A stretch of 64,000 nucleotides of DNA from an uncultured Methanosarcinales archaeon. GTDB taxonomy: Archaea; Nanobdellota; Nanobdellia; Woesearchaeales; CAIVOO01. The position numbers were made by a program. How positions within the stretch are numbered: position 1 is the first letter of the stretch; the number at the start of each line of letters is the position of its first letter. The stretch is from NCBI GenBank assembly GCA_964485195.1, contig CAZAIK010000001.1, forward strand, positions 1-64,000. Direction: 5' to 3'. Of the stretch, positions 39,001-42,000 are shown piece after piece.

Positions 39001-42000
39001 GGCAAAAACAATATCATTTTTTTTAAGATACCTCACTAGCCTGCTGGCCTTTTCCCGCCTGGCCTGAATTTCCTCGTGATGCTTCTCGTTTATGCCAAAA
39101 ACCCCTACGTGAATTTCATAATCCCTCTTTCCCAAAAATGCAGAGACTTCCTCCCCTATTATTACTCTTTTGCCCAGTCGCGGATACTTTTTCATAAGCC
39201 AGAGAGCCCCGTCTATGGTATTGTGGTCTGTTATGGGAACAAAGTCCATCCCGGCATTCACAGCGTTATCAAAGAGATGCTTGGGAGAGTAGGGAAGGTG
39301 GGAATACAATTCATAATTTTTGAGATCGGGCATTTTGAAGCTCTTGTAATTAAAAAGTTTTTTACGAATTGAAAATATGAAAACCAAGAAATTAACCAAG
39401 TGCTCCCACCCGTAATATCTGGTGCGCCCTCCGGGAATGTGCTCCTTGGAAAAGGAAGTGTGAAGATGCATATCTGCCTTTTTCAAGGGCTTCCCTGCCT
39501 TCAGCTTTGGCAGTTCCTTTTGCGGAGGGCACACCCTCCTGTACAGCTTTTCTACTTCCTCTTCCATGCAACAAGGAGATGGGAGAGGTTTAAAAACTTA
39601 AGTGTTAAACTGTAAAGTCAAGTTAATTGTGCAAAAGCTGGTGCTGCGCTCCGTCCGCTTCCAGAAACCGCTTCTGAACCCGACTTATTTGTAGTTTAAG
39701 TCTTAGTTGGCAACTGCTCCAGGCAGCACCAGCGCCAACACAGCATACCCGACTTTACCGTGTTAAACCAACATTTAAAAACAAAAAAGGTTTCTGTGGT
39801 TTAATGGCAAGGATACTCTATGCTGTTCACGGGGAAGGGATGGGACACGCTATCCGAAGCAAAGTTGTCATCAAGCATCTGTTGAGGAAAAAACACGAAG
39901 TGGTAATTGTCGCAGGCGGAAAGGCCTTCCCTTTTTTGTCGAAAATTTTTAATAATGTTTACAACATAGACTGCTTTAACATAGTGTACAAGAAAAACAG
40001 GGCTACGAACATTGACACTAGCGTTAATTATCTCAGGAAACTGCCTGTCACAGTCACCAGAAATTTCAGGAGCCTGCTGAAGATAATAGTCAATTTTGAG
40101 CCCCATCTGCTCATCACTGATTTTGAGCCTTTCTCCAATTTCATATCCAGGCTTTTGAGGATTCCTGTAATAGCCCTGGACAACATAACGATGATAAGGA
40201 AGGGAAAGTTCAAGATTCCCCGAAGCGAAATACTGTCTTATCTTACTGCCAGGCTCATAACAAACTTATTCAACCAAATAAATGCAAACAGGTACATCAT
40301 AACCACATTTTTTTACCCCAAGATAAAAAGGATGAGAAACACTGTTTTTGTGCCTCCCGTACTGAGGCAGCGAATCATTAGAACAAAGCCGGCCAAGGGA
40401 AGGCATATCCTGGTTTACCAGACTTCAATCACCAACAAGGCATTGCTTGATGAGCTGAAAGGAGTGGATGAGAAATTCCTGATTTATGGTTTTGATGAAG
40501 AGAAAAAGGACCAAAACCTTATCTTCAGAAAATTCAGCGAGAAGGACTTTGTAAAAGACCTGGCCTCCTGCAAGGCTCTTATTGTAAATGGAGGGTTCAC
40601 TGTTATAAGCGAGGCTATCTACCTCCACAAGCCTACCTTTTCAGTGCCGGTCAGGAACCAGTTTGAGCAAATCCTGAACGCTATTTATGTGGAAAAACTC
40701 GGCTACGGAGAGTATCATAAAAAGGCCACGGCAGACGTGATAAGAAAATTCCTGAAAAACACAGGCAAATACAGAAAAAACCTGGCAGGATATCATCAGG
40801 AAGGGAATAAATTATTGTTTGAAGAGGTTGACAAAACCATAAAGGAATTAATGAATAAAAAAAGTTATTTGCACAACATAAAATTTATAAATAAACGCCT
40901 TTTCGAGTTTTTGAACAGGCTGGAGGTGTTCAATAGATGATATGGATTGTTTTGCTCATCGCCATAATTTCAATTTGCTTTGCTTTATTCACAGCTTACA
41001 GCATTTCCAGGAAGGACAGTGGAAATGCAAAGATGAAGGAAATCGCATCTTCCATACACGAAGGCGCAATGGCTTTTCTTTCCCAGGAGTACAAGGCATT
41101 AGCAATATTTGTTATCGCTGTTTTTGTTGTTCTTTTCACCTTGATTAACTGGCAGACAGCAATTGCCTTCATTTTCGGAGCAGTTGCCTCTGCTGTCGCG
41201 GGGTTTGTGGGAATGAAGGTTGCCACTATGGCAAATGTGCGCACCACCGCAGCTGCCATGACAAGATTGAGCAAGGCGTTGAGGATAGCGTTTTCTTCAG
41301 GCTCTGTTACAGGGTTTATGGTTGTGGGCATAGGCCTCCTGGGAATTACCATTTTTTATATGATCTATGGAGACCCTGCGCTTGTCTTTGGTTTTGGATT
41401 CGGAGCCTCTTCCATAGCCCTCTTTGCAAGGGTAGGGGGAGGAATCTATACCAAGGCAGCTGATGTCGGAGCAGATTTGGTTGGAAAGGTGGAAGCGGGA
41501 ATTCCTGAGGATGACCCGCGAAACCCCGCGGTTATCGCAGATAATGTGGGAGATAATGTGGGGGATGTCGCAGGAATGGGGGCTGACCTTTTTGAAAGCT
41601 ATGTTGGCTCCATAATAGCTGCAATGAGCCTGGGAGTCCTTGTTTTTGGCATCAGCGGAGCGTTATTCCCACTTATGGTCGCAGGTGCGGGAATCATCGC
41701 CTCAATAATAGGAAGCTTTTTTGTAAAGACCAAAAAGGAGCACAAGATTCATCCTGCATTGAGGAACGGTCTTATGATAAGCTCTGCACTCGTGATAATT
41801 GCTGCATTTTTTCTGAGCAGGGAACTGCTGGGCAGTTTGGGGGCGTTTTACGCCACAGCGGCAGGGCTTGCTGTCGGAATCATAATAGGTCTGCTTACTG
41901 AGTATTACACCTCGGATTCTTACAAGCCTGTTCAGGGAATCGCAGATTCCTCAAAAACAGGGGCAGCAACCAACATAATAAGAGGCCTTGCTGTCGGAAT

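Follow-up and report, generated by a model that had tools for sequence, protein, structure and literature searches.

Between two divergently transcribed genes in the 64,000-nucleotide stretch of archaeal DNA analysed here (the window) lies a short non-coding repeat that abuts a promoter motif on either side, and the question it raises is what placed it there: insertion aimed at promoters, or selection acting on insertions that fell at random. Mobile elements in gene-dense genomes need harmless landing sites, and eukaryotic retrotransposons home to Pol III promoters via TBP-containing factors. The genome studied here is 1.1 Mb long, with ~89% in ORFs called by an ORF caller made for this analysis. 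A position nearly always one base upstream of the promoter box, shared by this repeat and by the insertion sequences (ISs) with the same ends, points to promoter-guided insertion.

The element in the window and its family

The features of the locus are listed in Table 1. The initial annotation had described a miniature inverted-repeat transposable element (MITE) at 39611..39759, and this was recovered: the ends TGTAAAGTCAAG...CCCGACTTTACC stand between two copies of GTGTTAAAC that match at 9/9. The window copy is 85–91% identical to six other full copies of the same subfamily.

Table 1. Features of the MITE locus in the window (positions count from the first letter of the window).
Feature	Position	Strand	Basis
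MITE copy, main subfamily, non-coding, 149 bp	39611..39759	+	blastn/nhmmer; used as query
Left terminal inverted repeat TGTAAAGTCAAG (family consensus GGTTAAGTCAAG)	39611..39622	+	alignment of 15 full copies
Right terminal inverted repeat CCCGACTTTACC (family consensus CTTGACTTAACC)	39748..39759	+	same 15-copy alignment
Inner arm GCTGGTGCTGC, within ~37-nt imperfect inverted arms	39637..39647	+	pairs with 39723–39733 in folds
Inner arm GCAGCACCAGC, partner of 39637–39647	39723..39733	+	folds
9-bp target-site duplication GTGTTAAAC, left copy	39602..39610	strandless	9/9 match to right copy
9-bp target-site duplication GTGTTAAAC, right copy	39760..39768	strandless	9/9 match to left copy
BRE/TATA motif AACATTTAAAAA, rightward gene	39770..39781	+	PWM 14.3 bits, offset 1
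BRE/TATA motif, leftward gene, minus-strand reading TAAGTTTTTAAA	39589..39600	-	PWM 10.9 bits, offset 1
Flanking gene, 360 aa, reads away from the MITE	38485..39567	-	ORF list
Flanking gene, 378 aa, reads away from the MITE	39804..40940	+	ORF list

The family comprises 15 full copies (133–150 bp) and 13 partial loci at E<0.01 (blastn, nhmmer); all full copies lie where the initial annotation had placed them; it had counted nine partial ones. Pairwise identity among the 15 ranges from 51 to 95% (median 67%), and many copies are probably old because they are no more alike than this. Three subfamilies are present, as proposed earlier; the 72–92% identity given with them fits the main subfamily only. 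All 15 full copies carry the terminal inverted repeats GGTTAAGTCAAG...CTTGACTTAACC, with arms that pair over ~37 nt. At the position of the inner arm the other subfamilies keep the inverted pair with different letters, and the ends are the sole part conserved across subfamilies and genomes. The element is too small for a gene.

Read in register, the target-site duplications match at 9/9 in six full copies, at 8/9 in three and at 7/9 in two. In the other four the match is poorer (5/9, 2/9, 2/9 and 1/9) and no duplication is recognisable, although the 1/9 copy reaches 8/9 after a one-base shift; the count of copies with at least 7/9 is thus 11–12 of 15, against 12 in the initial annotation, which also had six at 9/9. 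Single copies with matching duplications are compatible with simple insertion or with resolved cointegrates. Replicative transposition within one molecule would leave reciprocal flanks, and by eye none could be matched among the copies that lack a duplication.

Concerning relatives, in a genome of the same genus (G001) the site corresponding to C5:79235 lacks the element and has a single 9-mer and an intact promoter. A second promoter in G001 is likewise without the element. The window locus itself could not serve as an empty site there, as its flanking genes are rearranged in G001 and are convergent, not divergent. In two Logan contig sets, possibly from the source samples, the contigs break within the repeat and contain no empty-site joint, and they are uninformative on polymorphism. 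The initial annotation had not found the family in relatives. This holds for the 149-bp sequence, which BLAST found in none of 40 relatives except for a 22-nt match in G026, at a locus with no recognisable element. The end motif, on the other hand, is shared with relatives: of 401 Woesearchaeales genomes, 42 contain it, this one included (a reversed control pattern gave one hit overall). Inverted ends, target-site duplications, multiple non-coding copies, an empty site and transposase-bearing kin support the status of the repeat as a MITE.

By contrast, it is highly improbable that the repeat is a gene for a structured RNA or a hairpin terminator and not mobile at all, a role which the initial annotation had left open. 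The RNA folds are strong (-50.5 kcal/mol with z -4.9, and -57.4 kcal/mol with z -3.9; the DNA fold has -23.4 kcal/mol, z -2.4) and 5 of the 20 consensus pairs show double-sided changes, but pairing is expected anyway from inverted arms that a transposase binds. Such a gene would account neither for perfect 9-bp duplications of unrelated sequence and an orthologous empty site, nor for the same ends on elements that code for a transposase. The repeat also lies upstream of promoters that fire outwards, and the end facing the promoter is the left one in seven copies, the right one in five and both in three, so that orientation is random. Rfam covariance models gave no match at E≤1 between 39300 and 40000.

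Position relative to the promoter motif

The promoter PWM was learned de novo from this genome by unseeded EM with six random starts. The resulting motif, AAnnTTTWWAAA, has a start that peaks 34 nt before start codons and is present at 56% of genes; TATA words peak at -30/-29 (1195 genes), and the mRNAs look leaderless. At a threshold of 7 bits the motif is found at offset 0–1 past the duplication in 18 of 30 flanks, 16 of them at exactly +1, and beside every one of the 15 full copies; this offset window was first noticed in these same data, and the only clean test of it is the fresh set of 107 ends described below. TATA words (TTTAWA/TTWAAA) starting 5–7 nt past the duplication, counted from the table of copies, are seen in 17 of 30 flanks and 14 of 15 copies; the earlier figures, for 5–6 nt, were 16 and 13. 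The earlier claim of non-random siting beside BRE/TATA boxes is thereby borne out and sharpened to single-base resolution.

Both motifs beside the window copy begin 1 nt beyond the duplication. The rightward one starts 34 nt before the ATG at 39804, and for the leftward one the distance to the start codon, at 39567, is 33 nt; with the element set aside, no more than 11 bp separate these divergent motifs. Across the family, 13 of the 18 adjoining motifs have the start of an ORF of at least 233 aa 32–42 nt further on, and another precedes a tRNA-Tyr gene with an intron; judged by these starts, the adjoining motifs appear to be real promoters. From the element's end to the start codon we measured 43–52 nt where a start was called, against the 44–58 nt given initially. 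Within the duplicated 9-mer no sequence preference was found beyond the ordinary composition upstream of promoters, and the 9-mer has no consensus of its own.

Random insertion could in principle leave this pattern, if in spacers of 50–80 bp copies survived only where a promoter lies on one side and a terminator or another promoter on the other. The genome is indeed compact, 10 of the 15 spacers measure 30–132 bp with the element removed, and in the window little else would be tolerable with the motifs so close together. We compared the copies with a permissive null in which every insertion into the same 15 spacers is allowed unless it hits a coding sequence, a promoter of 36 nt or the 12 nt that follow a stop codon. 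This null expects 0.66–1.37 of 15 copies beside a motif, against the 15 observed (P ~1e-19); its word-based counterpart expects 1.35–1.69 against 14 (P 2.7e-15 and 2.7e-14 in two valid-P variants). The motif is also abutted where the spacer is roomy, with 230 nt free at C3:5584 and 18–22 nt at C3:97263 and C2:116780. The insertion L009 abuts the promoter on its left despite ~34 nt to the one on its right.

The partner insertion sequence and its insertions in other genomes

The transposase family behind the MITE had been left open. Other genomes contain an IS of 870–940 bp that shares the ends of the MITE, makes 9-bp duplications and has a single transposase ORF of 260–277 aa; the ends of this clade read GG[T/C]nAAGTCAA[G/C]-N6-GTG. 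Transposase-bearing elements with these ends are L012, L022, L028, L021 and L025. The 872-bp element L012 encodes a 260-aa protein that matches PF13610 (DDE_Tnp_IS240) at 68.7 bits (cut-off 27) and, just below the cut-off of 125, the NCBIfam IS6 model NF033587 at 120.4 bits, with model positions 3–201 of 202 covered. The same protein passes the IS1/IS1595 zinc domain NF050000 (29.3 bits, cut-off 28) and does not reach the cut-off of 100 for the IS1 transposase NF033558 (60.9 bits). In the transposase alignment (A3), D198 and E235 are invariant and D138 is found in at least 90% of rows.

The IS is 915 bp long in G083, where three insertions reconstructed across contig ends have perfect 9-bp duplications; these copies look recent because near-identical copies break the assembly. 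The IS copies of G170 and G154 have 9/9 duplications, and the MITEs of G199 also have 9-bp ones. Homologues form 415 protein clusters in public data at E≤1e-20, with PF13610, often PF03811, and lengths of 261–285 aa among the 120 listed. The partner is thus IS6-like and belongs to an abundant, uncharacterised IS group that joins an IS6-type core to an IS1-type zinc ribbon. Around more distant transposase homologues (at most 36% identity; L026–L050, covered through L044) no convincing inverted ends were found.

In the genome of the window no such transposase was found, in agreement with the initial annotation, by searches that covered this transposase family only: the protein query found none, PF13610 reached only a sub-cut-off 13.7 bits, and the end motif is near none of the contig ends, where IS copies could be hidden. 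Present-day mobility of the MITE in this genome is thus unsupported.

The positional rule was then read in two outside sets with the PWM of this genome. The first comprised ends from G083, G199 and G380 together with metagenome and genome contigs; 21 of 39 ends have the motif at the same spacing, IS and MITE forms alike, or 21 of 29 when tallied by insertion. The second, with criteria fixed beforehand, comprised 107 new ends from 36 further genomes. Here 41 of 107 ends have the motif at offset 0–1; by offset, there are 36 at +1, 12 at 0 and at most four at any other position from -9 to +24, with only seven in all from +2 to +8. All three data sets thus peak at +1 nt, counted from the BRE 'AA'. 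The ends of the second set are unpaired, and for many of the 66 that lack a motif at offset 0–1 this would be expected if an element has a single promoter-facing end. In some insertions for which both ends are known (e.g. L025, L011, L012 and L014) the motif is absent from both sides at the 7-bit threshold.

Neutral survival would have spread the insertions over the neighbouring offsets. A one-base-wide peak in 36 further genomes means that selection sparing genes and promoters cannot explain the placement, and we regard survival of random insertions as an improbable account; this bears on the choice between targeting and selection that the initial annotation had left undecided. All insertions seen, including every copy of the MITE, have nevertheless passed selection, and some contribution from it cannot be removed.

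Selection could also have favoured the exact position, if an end 10 bp upstream of the BRE acted as a promoter element, an insulator or a regulator site. The conservation of the ends alone would suit such a role, as would the outcome that divergent promoters come to lie ~150 bp apart, and IS-borne promoter effects are familiar in bacteria. Over 100 independent insertions are known from over 40 genomes, however, and the majority would have to be adaptive, the recent-looking full-length copies of G083 keep the same spacing, and both ends are used equally though their subterminal letters differ. Adaptive placement is accordingly quite improbable in our judgement. The best reading, drawn from position, is that the elements are directed to the upstream edge of BRE/TATA when they insert, and not filtered to it by selection.

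Candidate mechanism and comparison with known systems

We consider it probable that the MITE is a deletion derivative of the small IS clade widespread in Woesearchaeales, inserted in trans at cuts whose position the promoter sets. A transposase since lost from the assembly would have bound the ~37-nt inverted arms of the internally deleted element and made 9-bp staggered cuts. The cut nearer the promoter would leave 1 nt between itself and the BRE 'AA'; measured from the same cut, the TTT of the TATA box would begin 5 nt downstream, and in a leaderless gene the start codon would follow after ~35 nt. For a two-fold symmetric transpososome a single promoter on either side would suffice, and divergent promoters 11 bp apart, as in the window, would satisfy both sides. 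The promoter and both neighbouring genes would stay intact, a 'safe haven' in which the family could persist in a compact genome. The cue may lie in BRE/TATA itself, as DNA sequence or as DNA shape, or in the TBP/TFB complex bound there. A more specific version, in which the transposase docks on the BRE/TATA bent by TBP/TFB and not on a DNA sequence and integrates at the upstream edge of this platform, is tentative and in our view rather unlikely.

TFIIIB consists of TBP and Brf1, and archaeal TFB is homologous to Brf1/TFIIB. The MITE and its IS resemble Ty3 in that their insertions keep a constant spacing to a site of the TBP/TFIIB type; contact between transposase and factor is hypothesised here. 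In yeast Ty3 and Dictyostelium TRE5-A, TFIIIB sets the distance between the integration site and a Pol III gene. The target spans a few bases beside the site of a TBP/TFIIB-type factor and is regarded as a safe haven in gene-dense genomes (10.1101/2021.07.27.453949, PMC6101501 and PMC5006619). Those are eukaryotic retroelements with integrases, whereas here a prokaryotic DNA transposon would use promoters in general, those of tRNA genes as well as protein-coding ones. Tn7 (TnsD/attTn7) and other site-specific systems of prokaryotes also recognise a landmark, in DNA or protein, and insert at a set spacing from it; they use one site in each genome and a targeting protein of their own, in contrast to hundreds of potential sites (this genome alone has 408 promoters with the motif) and one small transposase.

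If the promoter rule is true, a DPANN DNA transposon inserting one base upstream of an ordinary BRE/TATA box would be a prokaryotic counterpart of the retrotransposon systems. It would explain how MITEs persist in a 1.1-Mb genome, mark functional promoters of uncultured archaea independently and from sequence alone, and offer a ~265-aa enzyme whose target rule is testable in vitro with archaeal TBP/TFB. Should the docking version be true, archaea would have their first known transposition system guided by transcription factors, a counterpart of Ty3–TFIIIB, and with it a single natural protein that could serve to place DNA exactly upstream of promoters. New in this work are the autonomous partner IS, the single-base promoter rule and its recurrence in other genomes. 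The literature searched holds no report of promoter-edge targeting by archaeal or Woesearchaeal insertion sequences, and PMC6640164, in the part available, is silent on it.

The partner IS is like IS6/IS26: it has a DDE_Tnp_IS240 core covering nearly the full IS6 model, a length of 870–940 bp, one ORF and ends that start with GG. It differs in scoring below the NCBI IS6 cut-off, in its end sequence and in its 9-bp duplication (usually 8 bp in IS6). The Sulfolobus MITEs SM1–SM4 are likewise short and non-coding, with inverted ends and duplications, and are mobilised in trans by end-matched ISs; they belong to different IS families than the MITE described here, and we know of no fixed promoter spacing reported for them. 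Within IS6/IS26, MITE derivatives (e.g. MITEHarch3 and MITEBth2) and archaeal members (ISH14, ISH15 and ISPfu1/2/5) are described in the parts available to us of PMC7986276 and PMC6807381, which contain no mention of a promoter-edge target preference. The N-terminal zinc ribbon of the partner is, in the available part of PMC7986276, reviewed only for the longer clostridial clade h, and the ISfinder IS6 entries with a 9-bp duplication are only ISH15 and ISPfu5 (PMC6807381, Table 5, as available).

The likeness to IS1 is in the N-terminal IS1/IS1595-type zinc domain, with PF03811 on many homologues. IS1 itself has 9-bp duplications and GGT termini. The partner is unlike IS1 in that the transposase model remains below its cut-off and a single ORF is present with no frameshift. 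One MITE subgroup (L017) has an 8-bp duplication, unlike the 9 bp seen elsewhere.

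Copies and promoter context of the element in its own genome

All 15 full copies listed in the initial annotation were recovered by blastn and an nhmmer profile in the genome of the window (G000; 1.13 Mb in 32 contigs), together with 13 additional partial loci at E<0.01. The aligned copies share the ends GGTTAAGTCAAG...CTTGACTTAACC and fall into three subfamilies, with pairwise identities of 51–95% (median 67%). Their arms are imperfect inverted repeats of ~37 nt, which form the long hairpin of the MITE (−23.4 kcal/mol, z −2.4, folded as DNA; −50.5 kcal/mol, z −4.9, as RNA). The flanking 9-mers match at 9/9 positions in six full copies, 8/9 in three and 7/9 in two; one of the four copies with a poorer match reaches 8/9 on a one-base shift. 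Based on the copies, shared ends and duplications, the family reported at 39611–39759 is real in sequence, copies and duplications. A longer variant (~209 bp, G000:C1:108872-109080) has both ends and adjoins a promoter; the profile scored only its right 121 bp.

Features of the window copy and its flanks
Feature	Position	Strand	Details
MITE copy	39611-39759		149 bp, non-coding, TGTAAAGTCAAG...CCCGACTTTACC
Duplicated 9-mer	39602-39610 and 39760-39768		GTGTTAAAC, identical on both flanks
Left promoter motif	39589-39600	minus	33 nt before start codon at 39567
Right promoter motif	39770-39781		34 nt before ATG at 39804
Left flanking ORF	38485-39567	minus	
Right flanking ORF	39804-40940	plus	divergent from left ORF

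Genes were called with a purpose-made ORF caller. Across 1195 of these genes, TATA-like words show a sharp peak 30/29 nt upstream of the start codon. Unseeded EM on the −50..−11 regions, run from six random starts, settled on the BRE/TATA motif AAnnTTTWWAAA, whose start peaks at −34 and which is found at ~56% of genes; these positions imply that the mRNAs would be mostly leaderless. At 7 bits the resulting PWM has matches at 0.11% of coding positions; in the expected place it marks 40% of genes. The promoters are unusually regular (for example 39770-39804 in the window). Of the 57 divergent gene pairs in which each side has a motif, 14 have motifs that overlap by 16 nt, and here one palindromic TATA box apparently serves both genes.

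In 18/30 outward flanks the motif starts 0–1 nt past the 9-bp duplication (the offset used below), and in 16 of these the start is at exactly +1; all 15 full copies show it there on one side or both. An ORF of at least 233 aa begins 32–42 nt after 13 of these 18 motifs, and an intron-bearing tRNA-Tyr 35 nt after another, so the motifs are functional promoters, and for more than one class of gene. The same arrangement is seen at several partial copies, and even where the spacer is roomy the copies lie directly against the motif. The end facing the promoter is unbiased (seven left, five right, three both), and the duplicated 9-mer has no consensus beyond that found upstream of all 408 motif-bearing promoters. 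Introns are present in the genes for tRNA-Tyr(GTA) and tRNA-Ser(CGA) at G000:C7:46742-46866 and G000:C6:7831-7919, respectively; the tRNA-Tyr promoter is among the MITE targets.

In a genome of the same genus (G001), the sequence at the site orthologous to C5:79235 is ...ctttataaaggttt CTACAATAA atttgattt..., with the leftward promoter and one copy of the 9-mer but without the element; the promoter orthologous to C3:87185 likewise lacks it. Since the promoters are present at these element-free sites, they are older than the insertions. The window locus was unusable for this comparison: the genes flanking the MITE (38485-40940), divergent in G000, are convergent and ~800 bp apart in G001:C6:16270-19040, and nucleotide identity is only ~67%. 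In the DNA runs consulted, the assembled contigs end within the repeat.

Transposase-carrying relatives

When one genome per species was scanned for the 20-nt end, another Woesearchaeota assembly proved to carry a 102-bp element with these ends (L009). This element abuts one promoter and leaves ~34 nt free before the other. A metagenome scan gave ten loci, including an 872-bp element with the same ends and a single 260-aa ORF (L012), a truncated second copy (L018) and several short derivatives (107–249 bp). The L012 ORF matches Pfam DDE_Tnp_IS240 (68.7 bits, cut-off 27) and, end to end, the NCBIfam IS6 model at 120.4 bits, slightly below the cut-off of 125; its N-terminus matches the IS1/IS1595 zinc domain, and the IS1 transposase model gives only 60.9 (cut-off 100). 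A protein query and a Pfam search for this transposase and PF13610 found neither in G000.

Of the 401 genomes sampled from the order, 56 have homologues at E<=1e-5, a tally that takes in two unpublished genomes (G212 and G137). The nearest (44–49% identity) lie within elements bearing the same kind of ends in the Woesearchaeales genomes G083 (915 bp), G199 (903 bp, alongside a 187-bp MITE family), G170 (941 bp) and G154 (932 bp). The duplications of these elements are 9 bp, with perfect 9-mers at three G083 insertions reconstructed across contig ends; 9/9 matches are also found at L055, L084, L021 and L025. In the protein collection there are 415 clusters at E<=1e-20; the 120 listed measure 211–285 aa (all but one 257–285 aa), carry PF13610 and often PF03811 (IS1 zinc finger), and mostly lie on contigs of roughly IS size. 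The degenerate end pattern GGYHAAGTCAAS-N6-GTG is present in 42/401 genomes, against one match across all 401 for the pattern read backwards; the largest expansion seen is 48 matches in a 0.9-Mb genome (G358).

In the relevant passages of two reviews (PMC7986276, PMC6807381), IS6 elements make 8-bp duplications, with 9 bp given for ISH15 and ISPfu5 alone; the family has two MITEs on record, and a zinc finger is described only for a long clostridial clade. The partner IS differs from the usual members so described in its 9-bp duplication and its IS1/IS1595-type zinc domain, and thus represents an uncharacterised IS6-like group. The element is a genuine MITE family of this clade, which has an IS1 zinc ribbon.

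A structured RNA or terminator, a role for which the hairpin and double-sided changes in 5/20 consensus pairs might be cited, is contradicted by the 9-bp duplications, the empty site, the transposase-coding relatives and the position of the elements, in random orientation, upstream of promoters directed away from them. Double-sided changes are also what transposase-binding arms would show if they co-evolved, and the element region has no match in Rfam. The unbiased facing end also argues against an oriented RNA or promoter function of the element.

Concerning the proteins, the close clade (L012, L021-L024) lacks in alignment A3 a C-terminal tail of ~35 aa common to more distant Woesearchaeal IS6-like proteins, some of which have a long additional N-terminal SWIM-like CxC...CxH region. 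A search for inverted ends around the more distant transposase homologues (<=36% identity, up to L044) gave no convincing element boundaries.

Targeting versus selection

The initial annotation had raised selection in a genome of short spacers as a possible origin of the position bias. We rebuilt the 15 empty sites and counted all in-spacer insertion positions, allowing for the 9-bp duplication and keeping intact the coding sequence, a 36-nt promoter and, optionally, 12 nt after the stop. This null expects 0.66–1.37 elements with the motif at offset 0–1, and 15 are observed (P ~1e-19); the motif rate across all non-coding 9-mers is 2.9%. The non-random placement first noted from TATA words holds as well (14 observed, 1.35–1.69 expected in the two null variants with valid P).

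In a first outside set (G083, G199, G380 and collection loci; IS and MITE forms pooled) the motif is at offset 0–1 in 21/39 ends, or 21/29 insertions, some of which have only one end visible; the misses are L010, L011, L012, L013, L014, L025, L067 and L086. As the offset had first been seen in G000, the rule (G000 PWM, >=7 bits, offset 0–1 after 9 bp) was fixed before a fresh set was fetched, the PWM learned in this single genome being applied to the others. The fresh set took in all 108 end-pattern matches listed from 36 further genomes, 107 of them with a usable distinct flank. The rule is obeyed by 41/107; motif starts number 36 at +1, 12 at 0 and three at +2, with no more than four at each of the remaining offsets between −9 and +24. 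Many of the 66 misses, scored as unpaired ends, are expected if a single end per element faces a promoter. In G358 the motif is at offset 0–1 in three of nine ends examined.

Pure selection, in which only insertions sparing genes and promoters survive, is rejected as the sole cause: the null already spares both, and a survivor effect would not give a one-base-wide peak that recurs across unrelated genomes and also among full-length IS copies near-identical within a genome. Positive selection for the exact juxtaposition of element and promoter is possible, but most of the more than 100 insertions would have to be adaptive. The preferred reading is an insertion rule that, as judged from the sequences, directs the element to the upstream edge of archaeal promoters.

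Proposed mechanism and unusual arrangements

The duplications and offsets show staggered cuts 9 bp apart, the gene-side cut falling 1 nt upstream of the BRE 'AA'; from this cut the TATA T-run lies 5 nt downstream and the start codon ~35 nt downstream. The promoter would position the transposase, or the complex that it forms with the ends of the element. The cue may be the A/T-rich, bendable BRE/TATA DNA itself, or TBP/TFB bound to it, whose footprint, going by its extent in other archaea, would end near the insertion point. Ty3 integrates next to TFIIIB, and TBP/TFB-guided insertion would be its counterpart. The unbiased facing end fits a two-fold symmetric transpososome that would sense a landmark on either side. 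A 150-bp element under an IS6-type enzyme may move by simple insertion or through resolved cointegrates.

At G000:C8:31601-31846, L011:2501-2749 and L228, two whole or partial elements share a site, arranged head to head or in tandem, which could reflect repeated hits on a single promoter or insertion beside an existing copy (IS26-like). A 32-bp perfect palindrome in G083 (L083, G083:C67:39801-39832) consists of two IS right ends placed back to back, has a promoter at +1 on its flank, and may be a minimal two-end remnant or product. At L013:2300-2520 an Lrp/AsnC-like HTH gene is immediately preceded by a perfect 20-nt end motif, and no second end lies within 2.5 kb; the motif may be a solo end or belong to an element that carries a passenger gene. 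The 107-bp MITEs L017 and L015 (metagenome contigs) end in ...GACTGTACC; the L017 duplication is 8 bp, not 9 bp, and L014 shares one flank with L017 and differs in the other.
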